Positions 51,401 through 64,000 are shown, numbered from the stretch's first letter. The stretch is 64,000 nt of DNA from Patescibacteria group bacterium (GCA_041660605.1 JBAZWB010000002.1:239940-303939); one strand, 5' to 3'. Numbers and translations: made by a program. Notes: generated by a model from the sequence alone, not told the origin.

Positions 51401-51455
51401 GGGGAACTCATTAAATAAAAAATTTATATAGTTAATTCCCATAGAGCGGGTATCG

Positions 51456-51519
51456 TATAACGGTATTACCTCAGCTTTCCAAGCTGATGACAGGGGTTCG
51501 ACTCCCCTTACCCGCTCCA
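51456..51519 (+). tRNA. tRNA-Gly (UCC) with encoded CCA
   Basis: Acceptor GCGGGTA/TACCCGC, anticodon loop TTTCCAA, T-arm AGGGG-TTCGACT-CCCCT. Confidence 0.85.
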
Positions 51520-51636
51520 TGGGAATTAAAACTTAAAAGCATCCTTACCCGCTCCAATATCAAACTTTCCGATTTTTTTGGCGGAATGCTATTCTGAAAT
51601 ATATTATAAAAATTTAAAATCTGATATAATCCATAT

Positions 51637-52251
51637 ATGTCAGACAAAATTTTGTTAAATAAAGAAATACATATATTTACCGAAAACGATTTGCCATGCT
51701 TAATTACTTATGCTGAAAAAACAGGAGGTTCACATTTCAGTATAACTATGGTGGTAGACTTATTTTTGCATGGTTCAAAAATTTTATTTCTTACAGCATA
51801 TCCAATGGCGAAAGAAAATTTTTTAGAACAGATTGAAATCGATCATTCAAAAATTGCCCTTGTTAATTCCCCAGGCGATTTAGAAAAAGCAAAAGATTCC
51901 CAAGTCATTATTTTAGAGAGCGGAAATGAAAATTTGTTCTTTGATGTAGTAAAAACACTTCCTGATTTGCAAGAAAGGGTTGTCTTGATTAAAAATATGG
52001 AAGTATTTACTCAAGCTGTTTTTGATGTTTGTATAAGTATGAAAAAAATTATTTTATCTGGAAATATTGATACATGTATCGATAAAGAGAGAATTAGTAA
52101 AAAATATTTTAAAACAATAATTGCTTTTTCTAAACCAGATATTTTGTTACCGATAGAAATCCCAGTATTAGAAAAATATGTTGGTTATTTATCAAATAAA
52201 GACGAGAGCGGTAATGTAATTGTTCAAAAAATTCAGAAATATGACAGATAA
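51637..52251 (+). CDS. Hypothetical protein (islet cargo)
   Basis: 204-aa ORF in the AT-rich islet. Confidence 0.45.
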   Translation: MSDKILLNKEIHIFTENDLPCLITYAEKTGGSHFSITMVVDLFLHGSKILFLTAYPMAKENFLEQIEIDHSKIALVNSPGDLEKAKDSQVIILESGNENLFFDVVKTLPDLQERVVLIKNMEVFTQAVFDVCISMKKIILSGNIDTCIDKERISKKYFKTIIAFSKPDILLPIEIPVLEKYVGYLSNKDESGNVIVQKIQKYDR

Positions 52252-52687
52252 AAAATACATGGCTCTTGCAATACTTGAAGCAGAAAAAGGTAAAAAATTA
52301 GGTAATTTACCTTTTGGTGCTGTTTTAGTTAAAAATGCTGATATTATTGGTTCTGCTCATGCAGAAGATATTACTTCAACAGATGTATCTGCTCATGCAG
52401 AACTTCAAGCAATCCAACAAGCATGCAAAAATTTAAAAACAAGCAATTTAAAAGAATGTGTACTCTATACTACAAATGAACCTTGTGCCATGTGTGCAGG
52501 TGCTATTCTTCAGTCAGGTATTTCTAAAATTGTGATTGGAGTTATTCGTGGAGATATTCCCAATAGGTTTCAACCGAAAAAAATTGGAATTGATGAATTG
52601 ATTGAAAATTACAATTATAAGCCAGAAATCATAAGAGGGGTTTTGAAAAGTGAAGTTATTGAATTATTTAAAAATGGCAAACTTTGA
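52241..52687 (+). CDS. CMP/dCMP-type zinc-dependent deaminase (TadA/guanine deaminase-like)
   Basis: HAE...PCAMCAGA zinc-binding motifs. Confidence 0.65.
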   Translation: MTDKKYMALAILEAEKGKKLGNLPFGAVLVKNADIIGSAHAEDITSTDVSAHAELQAIQQACKNLKTSNLKECVLYTTNEPCAMCAGAILQSGISKIVIGVIRGDIPNRFQPKKIGIDELIENYNYKPEIIRGVLKSEVIELFKNGKL

Positions 52688-54658: not shown

Positions 54659-55003
54659 TATCCGCTGCTGATTAAAATACATTTATTAAAAAAGGAGGCA
54701 ACCGGCTGGTTGCCTCTCGCATTACCCTGAAGGAAATGCTCAGCGTCATCGCGTCTCACGCTATCCGCCTTCGCCTTCCTTACGCAGTAATGTGATAATG
54801 ATGGGGGGTTGGTCCATAATACCCCTCCTCAATATTGTTTGTTGTACCGTAATTGGTACATTTTTATAGTAACATTTTAATAAGTTAAGTAAAGCTCTCT
54901 TACGCCACCGGATATAAATGTAAGTGATTGACACAGGCATTGCCTTGTGTTAAGTTGATTGAGTTCCTTTTGCTATCAATCACTCTAATTATAGGAGGGA
55001 GAA

Positions 55004-55360
55004 ATGCGTAGAATCTCCTTATGCTGCCTGGCTGTTATGCTGCTAATGCTGGGAATTGCCGGCTGTGCAAAATCGTTAGAACCTTCTGATGACGGAAGAT
55101 TCCACTTTCATGGAGAGGATCTTCCTCAGATTGAATTTTTATACGATCCCGGATCGTGGCTGATGACCGTTTCCAATAAGACGGACATTAGCGCAAAAAT
55201 CAAAATCCAATCCAATCTGGAAAGTAATGGTATCAGCTTTACTCTTGGGGGTTTCAAAGAGCACAGCTACCATGAATACTACGAAAGCAATAGCACTATT
55301 CACATCGCCATAACCCGGCTTGGTGAAATCTACAAATTCACGGTAAAGCTTAAATACTGA
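55004..55360 (+). CDS. Lipoprotein, hypothetical
   Basis: Signal peptide with lipobox LGIAGC. Confidence 0.55.
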   Translation: MRRISLCCLAVMLLMLGIAGCAKSLEPSDDGRFHFHGEDLPQIEFLYDPGSWLMTVSNKTDISAKIKIQSNLESNGISFTLGGFKEHSYHEYYESNSTIHIAITRLGEIYKFTVKLKY

Positions 55361-55655
55361 TATGGCTTTCATGGCAACAACAATGCCGCTTTTCTTCACT
55401 AACAAATCTGAAGAGACGCGGCGTTTTTTTACTGGGAGTTAAATTTCAAAAATTCAATGCGCTGCCTCGTGGAGGTTGACCCCGCCTGCCATGGAGAGGC
55501 GGGGTTGACATAATCTATTAGTCTGCTAAAATAGGCAATCAAATCTCACCCTTTTGATAGGGTGTTTTTTGATACCCAAAAATTGGCTAGTAAAAGCTAT
55601 AAATATGCTTTTATTGCTAATTTTAGCCAAATTACTATTAATAATTGAGGAAAGT

Positions 55656-56183
55656 ATGGAAAAGTTGTTAAAACTGATAAAAATCAAAAACATAACACCC
55701 GCCGTGCTGATAATATTAATCTGGCAGATTTGCTTCCCTCAGCATGTCATGGCCTTACAAATAAATACCAATAAAAACCAGCTGGTGGCTAATAAATTTA
55801 CGGAACAATGGCTGATGGTGAATATTGCCGATTCATCCCAGGAAAAAGCGTCTTTACGCCTGCCGGAAAATGCGGATCGGCCACAGCCAAAAGCAAGAAA
55901 AACTATGCGCATCTCCGTGACAGCCTATTCTTCAACAGTTGACCAATGCGGCAGCAGTCCGTTTACCACCGCTTCAGGCACGCAAGTGCGGGATGGCGTC
56001 ATTGCCGCCAATTTCCTGCCGATTGGCACCAAGGTCAGGTTTCCGGATTATTACGGCAGTAAGATATTCACAGTTGAGGATCGCATGAGCAATCGTTACT
56101 GGTACCGGGCGGACATCTGGATGGCTTCCAGGGATCTGGCAAAACAATGGGGGGTCAGAAACATCATGATAGAAATCATCTAA
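55656..56183 (+). CDS. 3D-domain protein (YuiC/MltA-like cell-wall associated)
   Basis: VTAYSS...DQCGSSPFTTASG...LPIGTKVRFP...DRM aspartate-containing 3D-domain pattern. N-terminal TM helix. Frame opens at 55554; the start chosen here is the ATG after the GAGGAAAG RBS. Confidence 0.6.
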   Translation: MEKLLKLIKIKNITPAVLIILIWQICFPQHVMALQINTNKNQLVANKFTEQWLMVNIADSSQEKASLRLPENADRPQPKARKTMRISVTAYSSTVDQCGSSPFTTASGTQVRDGVIAANFLPIGTKVRFPDYYGSKIFTVEDRMSNRYWYRADIWMASRDLAKQWGVRNIMIEII

Positions 56184-56344
56184 TAATGCATAATCAAAAG
56201 CCTCGATTTATAAAGTCGGGGTTTTTGGAATGCTAAATACTTGATAAATACAGGCAATTCTGTTATGATTTGAATATGTAGATTTAAAATCTGCTGTTTT
56301 ATTAACGAAACCCAGGACGAAAATATAATATAATTATTGTCTTG

Positions 56345-56460
56345 GCCAGGTAGCCCCGCCCGCCTTGCTCCGCAACGCGGAGCGGGCGTGGCAAGCCCCC
56401 GCCAGTAGGCGGGGTAAAATCCAGGCAGTGGTCTGTCCCGCCAAGGGGCGGGACCCCGCA
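56345..56460 (+). pseudogene. Disrupted copy of tRNA-Cys with GC hairpin inserts in the D loop and anticodon loop
   Basis: GGCCAGGTAGCC, a 68-nt insert, AGGCAGTGGTCTG, an insert. All collinear with the intact tRNA-Cys. Confidence 0.5.
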
Positions 56461-56523
56461 ATACATTAGAAAAAATATAAGAGTGCGGGACAAAACCAAA
56501 ATATACGGCACCCTGAAAGTAAT

Positions 56524-56598
56524 GGCCAGGTAGCCAAGTAGTAAGGCAGTGGTCTGCAAAACCACTATTCACGGGTGCAATTCCCGTCCTGGCCTCCA
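56524..56598 (+). tRNA. tRNA-Cys (GCA) with encoded CCA
   Basis: Acceptor GGCCAGG/CCTGGCC, anticodon loop CTGCAAA, T-arm ACGGG-TGCAATT-CCCGT. Confidence 0.85.
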
Positions 56599-56713
56599 GC
56601 CAAATTTGTTGGTTTTAAAAACTAAAATGACCGCCGAGCCTCGACTTCACGTCGGGCGAGGCAAACAAATTAGGGAAAAAGAAGTAATGAGGAAAAAACC
56701 GTAGGTTGTTTCC

Positions 56714-58252
56714 TCATAGCCACGCGCGGGGGTAGTTCAGTGGTAGAACGCTTCCTTGCCAAGGAAGAGGTCGCGGGTTCAAGTCCCGTTCCCCGCTCCA
56801 ATCGGAAAATTTGAATTTTTCAGCGGCGCAAAGCCACTGATTAGATAATGAAATTAGGGCTTTCCCGCCAACGAGGCGGAAGTTCGAGCCAATTTTTTGT
56901 ATAAAATTTCTTTTTGCTTCTAAATTTTCTTGTTTTGATGTAAAAGGGGCTTGGTGAGCGTCTAATATCCATTTTCTGAAGAGTTCGAGCCGAGCGTCGC
57001 CCTTATTCTTAAAACTATCCAGTAATTCCTTAATTTCAACCAGCCGGTTGACGATTTTTTGTTTGGCTTTGTCAAATACCTCTTTAGAAATTCCTTGGTC
57101 TAATCTCTCATCAAGCAGTAGCAATAGTTTTTCCTCTAATTTAGCTTGCTCGCCTTTTAACGCCTGAATTTCCTCGCCATGCTTAGTTGTTGCTTCTTTG
57201 ATTTCCCCGTCAACCTTAATTAACATTTTGTCTTTCCAATCATCAGGCAGGGCGACGCTCTCAATGGTTTTATTGATCTGGCTGACCAAGTGCCTTTCTT
57301 CAATGAACTTCTGCGAGCAAACCACATTTTTCTTGGTACAGCGATAATAAACATATTTCAACCCTGAAGGTTTTTTCTTTCTTTCGGCAGTTACCATGCG
57401 TCCGCACTCACCACAGGTGAATACGCCCCGGAATGCGAAAGGCAGAAGGTCTTTTTTAACCCTGGTCTTTCGTTTGGCCGAGTGAACCTTCTGCACTTCG
57501 TCAAATAACTGCTTGGTAATTATCGGCTGGTGACTGCCCTGGTACATTTCGCCCTTGTGCAAAAATACGCCGTAATAAAACGGATTGGTCAGCATGTCTA
57601 CTAGCTTGGAAATGACGATTTGCTTATTTGTCCTACGGCTCACCAAGCCCAGCGAAAGCGACAGCTTCTGCAGTGAATAAATCGTGTGATTGCCCCCGGC
57701 ATACGCCTCAAAGAGCTTTTTGACTATCTGCCAGCGCTCCGGGTCTTTGATGATGGTGTGGTGCCGTAATTCGTTCAGATAGCCGACAGGCGCGAGCGCT
57801 GGCCATTCGCCCCGGCGGAGCTTTTGGCGTATGCCGCGTTTGATATTTTCGCATAAGTTATCAATGTAGTATTTGCTCTGGCCAAAAGCGATATTAAGCA
57901 TGAATTTTCCCTGTGGCGTGGCATCAAACCAAAATGTAGGAAATTTTAAACCGCCAATCTTGCCAGTATCCACCATAAAAATGATTTTTCCGCCGTCAAT
58001 GCTGTTTCTGGCCAATCTGTCCGGATGCCACGCCAAAATGCCCATAGGGCCATTTTCTTCTATGCGCTTGATCATTTTATTAAAAAGAGGACGACCGGGC
58101 ACTTTGGCCGTCTTGCTTTCTATGTATTCGTCAATTACTTCTAAATTTTCCTTAATCGCAAATTCTCTTAATTCCGTTATTTGCGATTCAATGGATAAAA
58201 CCTGCCGGTCGTCCTCGTCAGTTGATTTCCTGGCGTAGATTACATATTTCAT
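56714..58252 (-). CDS. Large serine recombinase (resolvase/invertase N-domain, recombinase domain, zinc ribbon)
   Basis: N-terminal YARKSTDEDDRQVLSIESQ with the catalytic Ser. Downstream recombinase domain with CGECG...YYRC zinc ribbon. The 3'-terminal roughly 170 nt runs through IR-A and antisense tRNA-Gly, so the true C-terminus is uncertain. Confidence 0.85.
   Translation of the reverse strand: MKYVIYARKSTDEDDRQVLSIESQITELREFAIKENLEVIDEYIESKTAKVPGRPLFNKMIKRIEENGPMGILAWHPDRLARNSIDGGKIIFMVDTGKIGGLKFPTFWFDATPQGKFMLNIAFGQSKYYIDNLCENIKRGIRQKLRRGEWPALAPVGYLNELRHHTIIKDPERWQIVKKLFEAYAGGNHTIYSLQKLSLSLGLVSRRTNKQIVISKLVDMLTNPFYYGVFLHKGEMYQGSHQPIITKQLFDEVQKVHSAKRKTRVKKDLLPFAFRGVFTCGECGRMVTAERKKKPSGLKYVYYRCTKKNVVCSQKFIEERHLVSQINKTIESVALPDDWKDKMLIKVDGEIKEATTKHGEEIQALKGEQAKLEEKLLLLLDERLDQGISKEVFDKAKQKIVNRLVEIKELLDSFKNKGDARLELFRKWILDAHQAPFTSKQENLEAKRNFIQKIGSNFRLVGGKALISLSNQWLCAAEKFKFSDWSGERDLNPRPLPWQGSVLPLNYPRAWL
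56726..56800 (+). tRNA. tRNA-Gly (GCC) with encoded CCA; integration target
   Basis: Acceptor GCGGGGG/TCCCCGC, anticodon loop TTGCCAA, T-arm GCGGG-TTCAAGT-CCCGT. Confidence 0.85.
56795..56886. repeat. IR-A, left copy (92 bp, perfect)
   Basis: Reverse complement equals 58329–58420. Confidence 0.9.
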
Positions 58253-58328
58253 AGTTGTCGCTTTCGCTTAATTCTTATCAGTCAAAATTGGCTACCCCGC
58301 GGGAGCGGGGTGTTCCGCAATGCGGAGC

Positions 58329-58420
58329 CGAACTTCCGCCTCGTTGGCGGGAAAGCCCTAATTTCATTATCTAATCAGTGGCTTTGCGCCGCTGAAAAAT
58401 TCAAATTTTCCGATTGGAGC
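58329..58420. repeat. IR-A, right copy (92 bp)
   Basis: Perfect inverted match to 56795–56886. Confidence 0.9.
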
Positions 58421-58560
58421 TGCTTTTACCGAAAAGTTCGGACTTTCTTTCTATGAATTCAGGCGGGCGGAAGGGGGGTCTGGGGGGAATTCCGCCCGCC
58501 TGCCCTCTCCGCAAAAAAATTAATTAAATGGGCTTTTAAAAAAACAAGGAGATTTTTCGT
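58415..58560. repeat. IR-B, left copy (146 bp)
   Basis: Reverse complement matches 63473–63618 with about 5 mismatches. Shares the TGGAGC core with IR-A. Confidence 0.85.
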
Positions 58561-58652
58561 AATCCCGCAGAAGCGGGATGCGCCGCGTTAAGGATAGCCC
58601 TTGACCCTCCCACCCGTTCGCAGGCATTTACTCCCTGAAATCAGGATATTCT

Positions 58653-58680
58653 AATTTTGAATATTCATATTTTGAATATA
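58653..58680 (+). promoter_or_regulatory. Candidate operator: two direct TTTTGAATAT repeats with an internal GAATATTC palindrome upstream of the XRE gene
   Basis: TTTTGAATAT at 58655–58664 and 58670–58679. Confidence 0.4.
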
Positions 58681-58690
58681 TCATAACCTT

Positions 58691-58909
58691 ATGGATAAGA
58701 CAATATATCTGAATAAATACAAACGAATTGTCGAAAAGCTTAAAAGTGCCCGTCTTGAAGCAGGATTAACGCAAAAACAAATAGCAGACAGGCTAAAGGT
58801 GCCACAATCGTATATATCCAAAGTTGAAGCAGGGGACCAAAGAATCGATATTATTGAGCTAAAAGCATTTGCCGATCTTTATAAGAAATCGATCACTTAC
58901 TTTATTTAA
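58691..58909 (+). CDS. XRE/Cro-type helix-turn-helix transcriptional regulator
   Basis: LTQKQIADRLKVPQSYISKVEAG HTH_3 signature. Confidence 0.75.
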   Translation: MDKTIYLNKYKRIVEKLKSARLEAGLTQKQIADRLKVPQSYISKVEAGDQRIDIIELKAFADLYKKSITYFI

Positions 58910-59082
58910 TTTCAATCAATAAAAATGGGCGTTTCTATACGCTTTTTTTATTTATCCACAGGGTAAGTGGGTTGACGGTTTATTTTATATGTGATAAGGT
59001 GTAAAGGAATCAATATTCTAGGATATTAATACGATAAATAATCACATAACTTATACCTTAAGAATTAACCTTAAAAACACAT

Positions 59083-59319
59083 ATGAAACCTAAACCGCCT
59101 ACAAATGAGACAAAAAGAGATAGATTCAAGAGACTTGCTGAATACAGGACAAATGAAGTATTGAGTAAATTAAAAATACTTGGTAATTGCTCTAATCAAC
59201 AAGCATATGACTATACTGAAGAGGATATACGAAAAATTTTTGATTCAATTGAAAAAACGACACGAGCCGTAAAATCAAAGTTTCAATTAACGCCTAGGGA
59301 TAAAGAATTTAAATTCTAA
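59083..59319 (+). CDS. Small hypothetical protein
   Basis: 78-aa basic ORF directly upstream of the ATPase gene. Confidence 0.4.
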   Translation: MKPKPPTNETKRDRFKRLAEYRTNEVLSKLKILGNCSNQQAYDYTEEDIRKIFDSIEKTTRAVKSKFQLTPRDKEFKF

Positions 59320-59341
59320 GTGTCTTTTTAAAGTTTATTTT

Positions 59342-61087
59342 ATGTCGTTAAAATTACATATATCTCCAAGAATAATTCCAAGCATTGCCAGTCTATATAA
59401 TGACGTCAATAGAATTTTCATGGAATATATTGACAATTCCATCGACAGTGCTGAAAAATTTTTTACTAATGATATTGATCAGTATTTAAAACCAATTGAG
59501 ATTGTTATTAAAATCTCTGGTGAAAAATTTAGGGACGGAAAAGTAACAATAAGTGATAACTGTTTCGGTATTACAAATTTTGGAAAGGTAGTAGAGAGCA
59601 TAGGTAATTCAGATAAAAAGGCGGATTTTACCACAAACGGACAATTTGGCTATGGCATCTACTCGTATATGGCAGCATGTGAAAAATTAGAAATTACTTC
59701 AAAGCTTGATGATCAAGAAAAGGCACAATACCTGCCCATTGAAAGAAAACAATTCGACACAGATCGCCAAGAAAATGTAAAAATTCCTGATCCAAAAATT
59801 GTAAATTTTAAGATGCAGTCTGGAACAATGATAAGTCTGTCCGGTTTTGAAAAACATTCATGGAAAGAAATAAACGCAGAAGAATTAAAAAATGAGATCG
59901 AAAAACACTTCGAGTTATTATTAGCCAGAAAAAATCTTTTTGTTAAAGTTATTGACGCTAAAATGAACGAACATATATGCAAGCCGTATAATTATTCTCA
60001 ACATGAAGGTGAGGTATATGACGACAATATTAACTCGGTATGTTATAAAAAGGGAATTATATCCCCAACAACTGTCAAATTTAATTTAAAAAAACCAATC
60101 CATATTTATCTTAAACTAACAAAGGGCAAATCAATCAATAAACCACCAATTTTTGTTGCCAAAGGTAGACGGGTGGGCGAGATAAAAGACGTCAGGTCAT
60201 TTAAATCAACCCATAAAAGCGATCTATGGGCACACCCAAATATAACAGGCTATATTGATTTAAATGATTTCTTGGATCCAACTATCGCAAGAAATGATTT
60301 TAAAAATACCGATAAATCAAAAGCGTTATTCGCTACTGTTAACAAATTAGAGGAAATTATTTTAGACGAGATTATAAGGGCTAACAAAGAAGCAGAGGAA
60401 CGACACTATAAAGAGCTAGAGGACAGACTTAACCAAATACTTTCTAAACTTGCAAGAATTGATGCCATGAATTATCGGACTGCATTTTTAACCGGAAATA
60501 ACATTAATTTACAACAAGGCGGTACAGGACAAATAATTGAAGGTAAACGCGGATCAAAAGACCGTGGTGGCGACCCCACAAATGAAAATAATGATCACCC
60601 ATTGGGTGAGAATGAGGGTTTTGGAAAAGGAATTGGAGGATCAAAGGGAAATATCCCTGGGGGTGAGAATGGCGACAATGCTTCGAACAAGGAAGCTGAC
60701 AACCCTTTTGAGGACACCGGATTTAAAGGAGGCGAAAAGAAAAAAAGCGGCTTTAATATAAGGATTGTTGACAGTGATCCCGATATTGATCAAGAAACTA
60801 ATAAACCAATTAGATCTTTACTTGTTGGTGACGAAATAAGAATCTTCAAAAAACATCCGGACTTCGAGGAACGGGTTGGGGAGTCTAGAAAAAAAGAAAA
60901 ACGAATCACAGAGCGTTTAGTCACATACATCGCTGGCGAAATAACAGTTCACTATAAAGACAAATATTTTACCCGATATGGTCAACCAGATTATAATAAA
61001 AAAATGTTTTCAGACTTAGTTGAATTTATTTATTCAATTGAAACATCGCTTGCTGATTTGGTTGGCAGGAACTTGTCTGACTATTAA
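59342..61087 (+). CDS. GHKL-superfamily (HSP90/MORC-like, HATPase_c) ATPase with a long C-terminal region containing a G/N/D-rich linker
   Basis: Bergerat-fold motifs: N box EYIDNSIDSA, G1 box ISDNCFGIT, G2 box GQFGYGIYS. Confidence 0.7.
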   Translation: MSLKLHISPRIIPSIASLYNDVNRIFMEYIDNSIDSAEKFFTNDIDQYLKPIEIVIKISGEKFRDGKVTISDNCFGITNFGKVVESIGNSDKKADFTTNGQFGYGIYSYMAACEKLEITSKLDDQEKAQYLPIERKQFDTDRQENVKIPDPKIVNFKMQSGTMISLSGFEKHSWKEINAEELKNEIEKHFELLLARKNLFVKVIDAKMNEHICKPYNYSQHEGEVYDDNINSVCYKKGIISPTTVKFNLKKPIHIYLKLTKGKSINKPPIFVAKGRRVGEIKDVRSFKSTHKSDLWAHPNITGYIDLNDFLDPTIARNDFKNTDKSKALFATVNKLEEIILDEIIRANKEAEERHYKELEDRLNQILSKLARIDAMNYRTAFLTGNNINLQQGGTGQIIEGKRGSKDRGGDPTNENNDHPLGENEGFGKGIGGSKGNIPGGENGDNASNKEADNPFEDTGFKGGEKKKSGFNIRIVDSDPDIDQETNKPIRSLLVGDEIRIFKKHPDFEERVGESRKKEKRITERLVTYIAGEITVHYKDKYFTRYGQPDYNKKMFSDLVEFIYSIETSLADLVGRNLSDY

Positions 61088-61092
61088 ACTAT

Positions 61093-61962
61093 ATGAACGT
61101 ACAACAATTAATTCAACAAATAACCCCCCTTTACAATAACTACAAAAGGAGAAAGAACAATATTTCTGGGACAGCGGCTCTCGAAATAATGTGGGATATA
61201 GGTGATTTATTAAAAACAAGAATTGATACCGACAGTATTGCTCCACACACATTATACCGAAATATTTATGGCAAATCGGAAGGGAAAGACAACATCACCC
61301 AAAAAAGTTATATAACAAGAGAATTTTTAAGTCGCTCTTACCGAATAAGAAAGTACTTTAGCAATAAAGATCAAATCCAGCAACAGCTACCGAGCCTGAA
61401 AAAATTTATTTTTTTCCGAGAAGCAATGCCGTTTTTTGATAATAAAAAATATAAACTCTCTGGCGATGAAGGAAAAAAATTGATTAATCTATTAAACAGT
61501 AACCTAACGGATAAACAAATACTTTCTTCAATTAAGGTTTTGCAAAAACAAAAAATTAACATACGGAATCCCCGAAGTCAAAAATTACATGAGCTTGAAA
61601 ACGAAAAAGTAATTTTCATCAATTTTTATAATTACATTTATTCATTTTTTAAACATAAAGATTACCGAGCAGCTCAACAACAGTTAGACAATAATCGTAT
61701 TATGCCTAATTATATTAAAGATTTGGCCAGGAATACTAGCTCAATGTCTCAAGATGGGCTAAAAAACTATAACCTACAGATACCACTGATGATCGGAGTA
61801 ATTTGGCAGCAATTCTCTGAAATGGTTAATAACCTCAATAAAGATAGTGATCCTAAAAAACGAAGAAGGTTTAGGAGGCTTATATCACCCGAAAGAATTG
61901 TAAGGCTCGCGGACATGTTATTCGCTCTCACTTCTGAAAATAATTACAAAAACTTTAAATAA
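61093..61962 (+). CDS. Hypothetical protein (operon partner 2)
   Basis: 6-bp gap from the ATPase gene. 289 aa, no recognised motif. Confidence 0.5.
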   Translation: MNVQQLIQQITPLYNNYKRRKNNISGTAALEIMWDIGDLLKTRIDTDSIAPHTLYRNIYGKSEGKDNITQKSYITREFLSRSYRIRKYFSNKDQIQQQLPSLKKFIFFREAMPFFDNKKYKLSGDEGKKLINLLNSNLTDKQILSSIKVLQKQKINIRNPRSQKLHELENEKVIFINFYNYIYSFFKHKDYRAAQQQLDNNRIMPNYIKDLARNTSSMSQDGLKNYNLQIPLMIGVIWQQFSEMVNNLNKDSDPKKRRRFRRLISPERIVRLADMLFALTSENNYKNFK

Positions 61963-61976
61963 TTAATAATAATCAT

Positions 61977-62549
61977 ATGCAAGAAAAAATCGATAGCGAG
62001 TTAAACGCAATTAACAACATTATCAAATCTCTTGAATCTCTGGATGAGGCGGCCAAAAAGCGCGTTCTTAGTTACGTATCAGAAAGGTTGGGTCTAAATA
62101 CTCTAGGCAAGCCCGGATTTTCTAATGAAGTCAAACCCTCTCAAATTAATCAAAATGCTCCAACTGGACAGGATCAAATAATAAATCTGGGGTTAAAAGA
62201 TAGTGTGGTTGATATTAGGACCCTAAAAGATCAAAAATCGCCAAAGACAGCTACACAAATGGCGGCCTTAGTAGCTTTTTATTTACAAGAATATTCGCCT
62301 GAAAATGAACGCAAAGAAATAATAAAGCCACAGGACATAACAAAATATTTTAAGCAAGCGAATTATCCCTTACCCAAAGGAAGACCAATAGTTACACTAG
62401 TAAATGCAAAAAATGCTGGCTACCTCGAATCAGTCGGCGAAAGCGCGTTCAAATTAAACCCGGTTGGCTATAATTTAATTGCCCATCAACTTTCTGAAGA
62501 AAAAAGTAGCGGTAATTCAAAAAGGCAACACAGGGCAAAGAAAAAATAA
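61977..62549 (+). CDS. Hypothetical protein (operon partner 3)
   Basis: 190 aa with a basic C-terminus. Confidence 0.5.
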   Translation: MQEKIDSELNAINNIIKSLESLDEAAKKRVLSYVSERLGLNTLGKPGFSNEVKPSQINQNAPTGQDQIINLGLKDSVVDIRTLKDQKSPKTATQMAALVAFYLQEYSPENERKEIIKPQDITKYFKQANYPLPKGRPIVTLVNAKNAGYLESVGESAFKLNPVGYNLIAHQLSEEKSSGNSKRQHRAKKK

Positions 62550-62551
62550 AT

Positions 62552-63406
62552 ATGGTTTCGTCGATTGCGAAAATCCAAGAAGTACCATTTGACTCCTTTA
62601 AACCCAAGCTAGAAATAATAGAAAAAAAGGTAAAAGGAGTAAAATTTAAACAGATCAATTCAAAGTCTCTTAGACAGGAGATCAGGCAAACGGTACAAGA
62701 TTATTTTAGAAATCTGCGTCTTGAACTGATACAGTACAATTTTTCATTAGACGCATTAGATAGCAATATGCAGGAGCTGTTAAAATTAACAAATGGTAGA
62801 TCCTTGAAAAAAATATATACTACTAAAATAAAAAGTTCTAAAAAGATAATGGAAAACCTGGAAATCGAGCGAGAATACAATTTTAGTAACCCACAGAATA
62901 GAACAAAGTCCCTGCCACTTGATGTTGAATTAAAAATTATTCAGACTTTAAATAATCTTATACCAGCAATTGGGAACTCCTATAAACAGATAATTTCTGA
63001 TTTAAATGACGATAATAGAATCTCTTTTCGTGGAACCACAGCTGAACTCCGTGAAGTTTTAAGAGAGGTTTTAGACAATCTTGCTCCAGACCAAGAAGTC
63101 AAACAACAGAAAGATTTTAAACTCGAGCCGAACACTCATAAACCAACAATGAAACAAAAAGTACGTTTTATTTTAAAGGCTAGAGGACAAAACAAAACTG
63201 AGATGAATACAACTGAAAACACTACCGCCTTAGTTGATGGATCTCAAGAAATGATAGCCACGATTGCAAGATCAACTTATGAAAAAGGATCTGTTGGCAC
63301 TCATACGGATAAAGGATCCCCAAAAGCTAGCTGTAAGCAATATAAAATGTATGTTGATAGTGTTTTATGTGAATTATTGGAAATACATAATTTGCCGATG
63401 AAGTAA
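62552..63406 (+). CDS. Hypothetical protein (operon partner 4)
   Basis: 284 aa. Starts 3 bp after the previous stop. Confidence 0.5.
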   Translation: MVSSIAKIQEVPFDSFKPKLEIIEKKVKGVKFKQINSKSLRQEIRQTVQDYFRNLRLELIQYNFSLDALDSNMQELLKLTNGRSLKKIYTTKIKSSKKIMENLEIEREYNFSNPQNRTKSLPLDVELKIIQTLNNLIPAIGNSYKQIISDLNDDNRISFRGTTAELREVLREVLDNLAPDQEVKQQKDFKLEPNTHKPTMKQKVRFILKARGQNKTEMNTTENTTALVDGSQEMIATIARSTYEKGSVGTHTDKGSPKASCKQYKMYVDSVLCELLEIHNLPMK

Positions 63407-63472
63407 TAATCTGATAAACTTATTCTGATTACCGAAATAGAGCGATAAGCGGCGCGCGCCGTACTCGGCGCC

Positions 63473-63618
63473 ACGAAAAATCTCCTTGTTTTTTTAAAAG
63501 CCCATTTAATTAATTTTTTTGCGGAGAGGGCAGGCGGGCGGAATTCCCCCCAAACCCCCCTTCCGCCCGCCTGAATTTACAAAAAGAAAGTCCGAACTTT
63601 TTGGTAAAAGCAGCTCCA
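63473..63618. repeat. IR-B, right copy (146 bp)
   Basis: Inverted match to 58415–58560. Ends in GCAGCTCCA, a direct repeat of the tRNA-Gly 3' end. Confidence 0.85.
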
Positions 63619-63654
63619 TCAAAAATAAACGAGAGAACAGTTATACAATAATTT

Positions 63655-64000
63655 ATGGCGAAACTCGTTCTTGTGCTCCACAACATCCGAAGTCGTTTCA
63701 ATGTAGGGGCGATTTTTCGCACGGCTGACGCAGCTGGCATAGATAAACTCTATTTAACCGGTATTACGCCAGCGCCACCGCATCCAAAAATAGAAAAAGT
63801 ATCTTTGGGCGCCGAACAATTTATCCCCTATGAAAAGCACCGTCAAACCAGCAGACTGCTGAAAAAACTTAAACTAGGGGGTTACCAAATAATTGCACTT
63901 GAACAATCGCGCCGTAGTATCTCATATTTTCAATATCGGCCACACTTTCCCCTAGCATTGATTATTGGCAATGAAGTAACTGGATTACCCGACTCTATTC
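63655..64000 (+). CDS. SpoU/TrmH-family RNA 2'-O-methyltransferase (3' end outside the window)
   Basis: NVGAIFRTADAAG SPOUT motif. The gene continues beyond the window. Confidence 0.7.
   Translation, partial: MAKLVLVLHNIRSRFNVGAIFRTADAAGIDKLYLTGITPAPPHPKIEKVSLGAEQFIPYEKHRQTSRLLKKLKLGGYQIIALEQSRRSISYFQYRPHFPLALIIGNEVTGLPDSI

Follow-up and report, generated by a model that had tools for sequence, protein, structure and literature searches.

A putative family of small serine-recombinase islands of Patescibacteria with a proposed internal inverted attP at tRNA CCA ends

Strictly directional recombination of attP with attB is the textbook property of serine integrases, which serve as major genome-engineering tools. 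In attB, the motif recognized by their DNA-binding domain 2 (DBD2) is 5 bp nearer to the centre than it is in attP (PMC11722253), and with two attP sites the SPbeta integrase assembles into tetramers that are non-productive (PMC11722253). Multi-site inversion systems exist among the serine invertases, and 910 of the 937 tycheposons in the paper describing these elements use tyrosine integrases. Here we describe a three-site arrangement in a 64,000-nucleotide stretch of a Patescibacteria group bacterium (GCA_041660605.1, JBAZWB010000002.1:239940-303939; hereafter the window), where a gene for a large serine recombinase (LSR) and a cargo region, each enclosed by long inverted repeats, lie beside a tRNA-Gly(GCC) gene. 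On balance, positions 56795–63618 are probably one integrated copy of a widespread family of LSR-driven small islands of Patescibacteria. The family departs from the standard picture in a live-looking attP within the integrated element, an attachment-site arm within its own recombinase gene and one recognizable target half-site at the CCA ends of many tRNAs.

The target gene, tRNA-Gly(GCC), occupies 56726–56800 on the plus strand (ARAGORN; Rfam RF00005, 70.8 bits; site alignment). We infer that its T-arm, GGTTCAAGTCC, acts as a B-type half-site, with the last 6 nt of the gene as core. Three cores partition the region at the positions given in the first-pass annotation: S1, GCTCCA at 56795–56800 (+), the putative attL crossover region; S2, TGGAGC at 58415–58420 (−); and S3, GCTCCA at 63613–63618 (+), the putative attR. 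A 92-nt inverted repeat, 100% complementary, connects the first two (56795–56886 / 58329–58420), and one of 146 nt, 97% complementary, connects the second and third (58415–58560 / 63473–63618). Both pairs had been annotated at these coordinates, the first as perfect and the second with about five mismatches; there are exactly 5. Repeats of this length cannot have arisen by chance, and no further long inverted repeat occurs in 55000–64000, where the remainder are of 20–25 nt at 71–86%. The Rfam matches were two tRNAs and nothing else.

We term the four repeat copies a, a', b and b', all delimited by repeat search. Arm a, the outer copy (56795–56886; 100% identity, with support from the open reading frame (ORF) and protein alignment), would form the P' side of attL, and a' (58329–58420), the inner inverted copy of the recombinase gene 3' end, the P' side of S2. 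Arm b (58415–58560) is the inner copy on the P side of S2, and b' (63473–63618) the outer copy on the P side of attR. The whole S2 region therefore spans 58329–58560 and in reverse reads b'-core-a, the order of a complete attP. A palindromic P-type motif, AAGTTCGGACTT, lies in arm b at 58434–58445 and in b' at 63588–63599; in the window it is a perfect 12-nt palindrome present only in the two b arms of the 64 kb, against 0.15 occurrences expected. Host flank begins beyond S3, with the start of a SpoU methylase gene at 63657. Each b arm also carries a 13-bp GC-rich hairpin, GGCGGGCGGAA…TTCCGCCCGCC (58460–58500 and 63533–63573), which lacks a T-run on both strands and is not a canonical terminator.

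The recombinase gene, encoding 512 residues, runs from 58252 to 56714 on the minus strand and matches the Pfam families Resolvase, Recombinase and Zn_ribbon_recom. The PF00239 match to the resolvase-type catalytic domain (E=1.4e-18) covers residues 4–150, and S10 and R8 are invariant in an alignment of 30 homologues. PF07508 (recombinase domain, DBD1) and PF13408 (zinc ribbon, DBD2) are also matched, with C280, C283, C305 and C312 invariant among the aligned homologues, and in the protein alignment the zinc ribbon is followed by ~90 residues rich in Glu, Lys and Leu. The matching PDB entries are the integrases of SPbeta (9dxh) and A118/LI (4kis), whereas the NCBIfam models for XisF and CcrA/B score far below their cut-offs. 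Because of this combination of LSR domains, integrase structure matches and low XisF and CcrA/B scores, the protein is, judged from its sequence, an LSR outside any named subfamily.

This gene is the sole long ORF between the first two cores. The repeats that had been annotated as enclosing only the recombinase gene and its promoter are present, but the enclosure is not that simple, since the ORF crosses arm a and the core and then all of the tRNA, which it reads in antisense. This makes arm a coding sequence: it supplies the final ~30 codons of the recombinase gene, whose reading frame passes over the crossover site. The copy at 58329–58420 accordingly duplicates the 3' end of the gene, in inverted orientation and upstream of the gene's own promoter. 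A homologue search returned 7,127 matches at E of 1e-10 or below, mostly of 484–493 residues and ending in F-x-WSG. The W-S codons, TGG AGC, are the reverse complement of GCTCCA, and the G codon and stop are supplied by the tRNA. In the window the family-typical WSG end falls at about 56792, and the frame continues for a further 25–27 residues antisense through the tRNA (56714–56794, −; …GERDLNPRPLPWQGSVLPLNYPRAWL). Antisense-tRNA tails, for example RDSNPR, are also found on longer homologues, several of them at other tRNAs. We also considered the alternative tail through arm b (WS-CFYRKVRTFFL here, WS-RFYEKVRTFFV in a related locus, L002) as a sign that the attP-form protein is translated and rejected it, KVRTFF being a mere translation of the conserved DNA motif AAGTTCGGACTT.

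The assignment of site types follows from spacing. The b' arm carries a conserved motif, AAAGTYCGRAYTTT, which mimics the tRNA T-arm motif GGTTCGAATCC. In every locus inspected GTTCG starts 24 nt from the 3' end in the tRNA and 29 nt from the equivalent position in b', and a position weight matrix (PWM) built from b' finds its best offset 5 nt closer on the tRNA side (offsets 9 versus 4). Because this 5-bp offset matches the published attB/attP rule (PMC11722253), the tRNA side is assigned as B-type and b' as P-type; S1 would then be attL, S3 attR and S2 a complete inverted attP. The crossover can be confined to the core's first four bases by comparing S2 with S3. An attempt to place the exact crossover dinucleotide from the dyad symmetry of P and P' was abandoned, the a-arm motif being too weak and too palindromic.

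To place the window locus among its relatives, 80 loci were fetched from species-representative genomes and 80 from metagenomes of the Joint Genome Institute (JGI), and 163 family loci were analysed. The fetched loci all come from Patescibacteria-type metagenome-assembled genomes (MAGs), with recombinases 44–68% identical. An inverted repeat brackets the recombinase gene in 138 of the 163 loci (median arm 118 nt), with arm pairs at 100% identity in 58 cases and at ≥98% in 88. In 83 loci a tRNA gene on the opposite strand overlaps the downstream arm, that is the recombinase gene 3' end, by 4–8 nt. The targets are tRNAs for Gln (21), Ser (18), Ala (13), Gly (12), Asn (10), Val (3), Asp (2), Trp (2), Glu (1) and Arg (1). 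Insertion is seen nowhere but at tRNA CCA ends, and among relatives the tRNA end is repeated at the far boundary at 10 tRNA types. A complete second repeat pair, of 70–339 nt and enclosing 0.6–9.1 kb, adjoins the upstream arm in 32 loci and the downstream side in one, weakly; in many further loci the far arm is lost at the contig start. Every complete locus has the same junctions, S1 = tRNA|a, S2 = b'|a and S3 = b'|flank, with unrelated flanks, and the P-type motif lies beside S2 in almost all loci. In L002, from another assembly, a recombinase 83% identical to that of the window has the same layout at tRNA-Gly(GCC) with different cargo, its arms forming a 97-nt pair at 99% and a ~175-nt pair at 92%. 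The three-site layout is a family trait and not peculiar to the window locus. The earlier view of the outer sites as attL and attR around an inverted attP is supported by the LSR domains, the 5-bp T-arm offset and the recurrence in 138 of 163 loci at ten tRNA kinds. A phage origin was considered and rejected, IMG/VR yielding just two close relatives, at 44–47% identity.

Several family loci show further arrangements. In L044 (53–2044) a recombinase module whose arms measure 175 nt has different tRNA-Ser genes, GCT and GGA, on its two sides in convergent orientation; this could be the product expected if the internal attP had recombined with a second tRNA, or a chimera, the arms being longer than k=141. 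In three loci (L022, 609–2393; L112; L123) the recombinase gene 3' end adjoins a P-type arm with the 29-nt spacing in place of a tRNA, and this arm differs from the upstream one; these could be composite or rearranged elements. At the far cargo boundary of L002 (4480–4536), ~57 nt of an a-type arm past the core are closer to arm a of the window than to the arm of L002 itself. The fragment seems to be what is left of an earlier family member next to which L002 inserted, and because of this apparent remnant occupied sites may be re-used. In the window, tRNA-Gly(TCC) (51446–51519) is followed at 51545–51590 by a 12-nt repeat of the tRNA 3' end (TTACCCGCTCCA), 25 nt past the tRNA, then by ~35 nt aligning with the core-proximal part of arm a, and then by low-GC ORFs (51637–52687). 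Positions 51545–51590 resemble the decayed remains of an attL-like site that belonged to a second member of this family.

The arms evolve in concert. In 60 loci whose nearest relative is 70–97% identical over a 600-nt recombinase segment (median 84.7%), arm identity has a median of 99.7% within an element versus 78% to the nearest relative, and the mismatches are evenly spread along the arms. Because the arms match within elements and differ between them, with even mismatches, the data point to homogenization across the full length of the arm and not to selection acting on a short site. Depletion of mismatches near the core, considered as a sign of selection on both copies, was only a slight effect, with rates otherwise even.

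The inner edge of the arm coincides with a constrained motif. At 56882–56890, the inner edge of arm a, GTTCGAGCC is the reverse complement of GGC TCG AAC, the G-S-N codons of an invariant IGSN, and in 75 loci the arm boundary lies 4–5 nt into the IGSN codons. These codons are fixed as GG(C/T) TCG AAC, with Ser TCG in 145 of 145 and Asn AAC in 141 of 145 loci, whereas other invariant Ser positions use all six codons and other invariant Asn positions mixed ones. The reverse complement, GTTCGARCC, is T-loop-like. On codon usage the IGSN codons appear to be fixed by constraint at the DNA level. In the upstream copy the repeat is broken exactly at the IGSN point by 30–60 nt of GC-rich hairpins and resumes for ~10 nt as AGCCAATYTT.

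In the window this interruption belongs to the unique spacer upstream of the recombinase gene (58253–58328, −), which comprises a GC-rich palindromic insert (58284–58328), the 10-nt resumption of the repeat (58274–58283, equal to 56887–56896) and the presumed promoter. The plan of the spacer is kept in about 100 loci as GC-rich hairpins with 4-nt loops, AGCCAATYTTTT, another hairpin and two AAAGCGATA boxes near the ATG; these conserved parts are candidate insulator and operator elements. Conserved GC-rich hairpins that separate the upstream arm from the promoter weaken the idea that tRNA read-through drives the recombinase gene in a flipped state.

Evidence on the mobile unit comes from contig ends. 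Three contigs consist of a whole element with flanks close to k−1 in length (far/tRNA side, in nt: L013, 121/118; L116, 134/119; L141, 119/120), and eight contigs in all end 114–123 nt beyond S1. Because a k=127 assembly graph yields such flanks when the tRNA-core has two alternative continuations in a sample, these contigs point indirectly to insertion of the recombinase module (R) and the cargo module (C) as one unit with presence/absence polymorphism.

We consider it somewhat probable that the window element and its relatives move as follows. The recombinase would read the T-loop-like motif and exchange strands within the first 4 nt of the core, at the acceptor end and discriminator, so that R and C are inserted and excised as one unit by attP × attB logic. 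Excision by S1 × S3 would release a circle of 6,818 bp, a size obtained by arithmetic on the repeat coordinates, in which R (1,442 bp) and C (4,912 bp) would be kept apart by two identical 232-bp attP regions lying inverted to each other. Integration could then proceed through either attP: use of the one next to the genes' 3' ends would give the arrangement seen here and in most relatives, and use of the other the mirror arrangement, which is rarely seen. Recombination between arms, by RecA or by the recombinase, would keep them identical and occasionally flip a module, changing no junction except the C-terminal tail of the recombinase. In the integrated state the internal attP would most likely also be a recombinase-binding site between two divergent promoters. 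Of the options raised in the first-pass annotation, an island with an internal inverted attP is the one that the sequence bears out.

Several observations weigh against such an island. Canonical LSRs recombine attP only with attB, or attL with attR in the presence of a recombination directionality factor (RDF), and the internal attP would be inert once integrated; yet the family has retained it, with long identical arms, across deep divergence. No conserved RDF candidate was identified. In the flank half-site F no motif is conserved, which is unusual for an LSR attB, and the arm a half-site gives only a weak P-type match by PWM in either orientation, likewise unusual for an LSR site; through these two, the imperfect dyad with both half-sites recognizable in attB and attP is not found. 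Contig searches returned no empty site or circular junction for the window element or any relative; there were no circular contigs, and terminal inverted repeats were seen in only two R-only contigs. Searches for the same host and cargo proteins in other contexts gave the same arrangement or arm-limited fragments, with no empty site, circle junction or flipped module. Equal use of both attP sites predicts roughly equal numbers of the two arrangements, whereas 83 and 8 were seen. All contigs with an orientation variant end at an arm, where mis-joins at unresolved repeats fit as well. Finally, a promoter and terminator scan found nothing above chance, so that the operator idea lacks direct support.

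Orientation data bear on whether the element is instead an active double invertible switch, in which the recombinase flips R (S1 × S2) and the cargo (S2 × S3) for phase variation and tRNA insertion is secondary. The geometry is indeed unchanged under either inversion, and in eight loci the tRNA lies directly upstream of the arm, promoter and recombinase gene, most of these contigs ending in the downstream arm. Homologous cargo is found in opposite orientations relative to the recombinase gene in L124 and L133, whose R modules are 93% identical, and in L041 and L139, which share 5.2 kb of cargo at 83–87% identity beside R modules <75% identical; in both pairs the breakpoints fall inside the b arms. 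Where both b arms are assembled, the cargo reads away from S2 in 29 contigs, is mixed in 1 and opposite in 0. In contigs cut at the far arm it reads away from S2 in 8 and towards it in 5 (hypergeometric P 0.0015), and mixed populations that break assemblies would give such a pattern of 5/13 against 0/29. The near uniformity of the fully assembled contigs nevertheless argues the other way, as do the agreement in orientation of two assemblies of the window organism and the failure to find any near-identical element pair that differs in orientation. Canonical LSR rules also forbid attP × attL and attP × attR, and with identical arms a flip alters no promoter–gene junction, changing just the recombinase tail and relative gene directions; no fixed outside promoter was found by the promoter scan. 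Module flipping is possible, and so is the annotated option of a double switch, opposite orientations occurring among relatives but only in arm-broken contigs. A switch as the primary function of the element appears unlikely.

More speculative, and in our view rather doubtful, is an extension of the island model in which the internal inverted attP is a built-in cis control device of a new class of LSR element. With a complete attP next to attL and attR, a single recombinase would, without an RDF, carry out reactions closed to canonical serine integrases: it would excise the island, re-insert it via either attP and flip each of its modules; the T-loop mimic GGYTCGAAC in its own gene would be a third binding site that sets the arm boundary, and the circle would be a bacterial counterpart of the yeast 2-micron plasmid.

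S2 might alternatively have no recombination role and act as an operator or decoy, for autoregulation of the divergent promoters or for keeping out incoming related elements through dead-end attP–attP synapses, with the repeats as a by-product. In Tn3, res lies between tnpA and tnpR. The position of S2, between the divergent recombinase gene and the HTH and cargo genes, resembles that of res, and the nearly fixed orientation in complete contigs is in keeping with such a role, as are the non-productive attP–attP tetramers of the SPbeta integrase (PMC11722253). However, the arms are identical over 92–175 nt and 100–340 nt with even mismatches, far beyond a ~50-bp binding site; a sharp arm boundary is kept at the DNA-constrained motif; and mirror arrangements exist. 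We judge this explanation quite improbable.

Two separate mobile modules bounded by terminal inverted repeats and merely juxtaposed, with R resembling an insertion sequence (92-nt repeats) and C non-autonomous (146-nt repeats), each inserting beside tRNA-like ends, would account for the R-only contigs with terminal inverted repeats (L021, L048), the L044 module between convergent tRNA-Ser genes, the homologous cargo and b arms beside divergent R modules (L041 versus L139) and the high variability of the cargo. Yet R is essentially never seen without an adjoining P-type b' arm, and a de Bruijn assembler yields R-only contigs for any unit flanked by inverted repeats. Moreover, each module has inverted cores at its boundaries, an arrangement from which it cannot be excised alone by a conservative recombinase, and the whole-element contigs with k-mer-length flanks point to R plus C. 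Independence of the modules, which had also been proposed for this locus, is thus only partly supported, by the homologous cargo with b arms beside divergent recombinase modules, and is very unlikely as an account of the element.

A chimera made by the metagenome assembler at a repeat, part of the condition set beforehand for discarding the arrangement, can be dismissed as virtually impossible: many related contigs, and the short-k Logan contigs of the same organism, do break at the arms, as the repeats predict, but the source is a 960-kb MEGAHIT k141 contig (ERZ27249449), assembled with a k longer than the 92-nt arm. In an independent NCBI MAG contig (GCA_041665905.1), which is colinear over 18,345 bp at 99.995% identity, both modules have the orientation seen here, and 138 loci drawn from many studies and assemblers repeat the layout, with arms that match inside each element and differ from one element to the next.

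The preferred reading, an LSR-driven island, leaves the cargo as its variable part. In the window it is a low-GC segment of 4,912 bp (58561–63472, +). Its genes encode a helix-turn-helix (HTH) protein of the HTH_3 family (58691–58909), a 78-residue protein (59083–59319), a GHKL ATPase of 581 residues (HATPase_c_3; 59342–61087), two proteins of 289 (61093–61962) and 190 residues (61977–62549) without family match, and a protein with the pPIWI-associated-nuclease-like domain pP_pnuc_1 (62552–63406). The GHKL-type ATPase is paired with the pP_pnuc_1 protein, together with three proteins without family match (59342–63406). PADLOC reported HTH and weak nuclease matches in the cargo and called no defence system; by its gene content the cargo looks like a candidate defence cassette. 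Across the family the cargo is highly variable and often opens with a small HTH gene beside S2, and the 78-residue ORF is common to the window and L002 only.

If this reading is right, the family is the main type of small integrative island in Patescibacteria, a group whose mobile elements have barely been described, and these islands appear to carry variable, probably defensive cargo. It also raises the question of how a serine integrase behaves with attL, attP and attR in cis. In addition, the 5-bp offset between T-arm and mimic could yield attachment-site predictions for hundreds of recombinases.

The enzyme and its attachment-site logic are those of known serine integrases; the layout with an internal inverted attP appears to be new, and we found no description of it. 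Full-text literature searches and the tycheposon paper describe no integrative element with a conserved internal inverted attP, in agreement with the first-pass remark that this was not a described element type. Compared with the large serine integrases (phiC31, Bxb1, A118/LI, SPbeta SprA; XisF; SCCmec CcrAB), the window protein has the same catalytic domain, recombinase domain and zinc ribbon, the coiled-coil insert being putative here. The systems are also alike in their short asymmetric att sites, in insertion that leaves attL and attR and in P-type half-sites whose motif is 5 bp farther from the centre than that of B-type half-sites. In contrast, the island keeps a complete inverted attP inside, within duplicated regions of 230–500 bp; the 3' end of its gene is the P' arm, with the reading frame crossing the crossover site; and it targets the extreme CCA end of many tRNAs, with no recognizable B' half-site and no RDF identified.

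The serine invertases (Hin/hix, Gin and the G segment, Cin and the C segment of P1, Min of p15B) likewise have a serine recombinase gene in or beside a segment with inverted sites, and within the C segment of P1 there are long inverted repeats whose outer ends carry the crossover sites. These invertases, however, are of ~190 residues with a C-terminal HTH and need an enhancer and Fis, whereas the island recombinases have 487–512 residues and LSR domains. Their sites are equivalent 26-bp palindromes, unlike the attL/attP/attR hybrids proposed for the island, and they switch gene fusions or promoters, whereas an island flip would alter only the recombinase tail.

The predicted excised circle resembles the yeast 2-micron circle (FLP/FRT, 599-bp inverted repeats) in having two inverted site-bearing repeats and two unique regions, one of which encodes the recombinase. 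FLP, however, belongs to the tyrosine recombinases, and the 2-micron circle, itself a replicon, uses flipping to amplify its copies; the island has variable cargo and no conserved replication gene, and its circle is only predicted. Insertion sequences and transposons with terminal repeats occur as a unit alone at varied targets, which is not how the R module of the island is found.

The tRNA-targeting islands and tycheposons are likewise small cargo islands at a tRNA 3' end that regenerate the end of the tRNA. They differ in relying almost exclusively on tyrosine integrases and in being bounded by direct repeats of a tRNA fragment, with no internal inverted attP reported. Integrases of the SSV1 type share with the island an attachment site that overlaps the recombinase coding sequence, such that the gene's end is altered on integration. 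The integrase of SSV1, a tyrosine recombinase, has its gene split in two by this process, whereas the island would exchange only the last residues and the stop codon, leaving the protein intact in both contexts.

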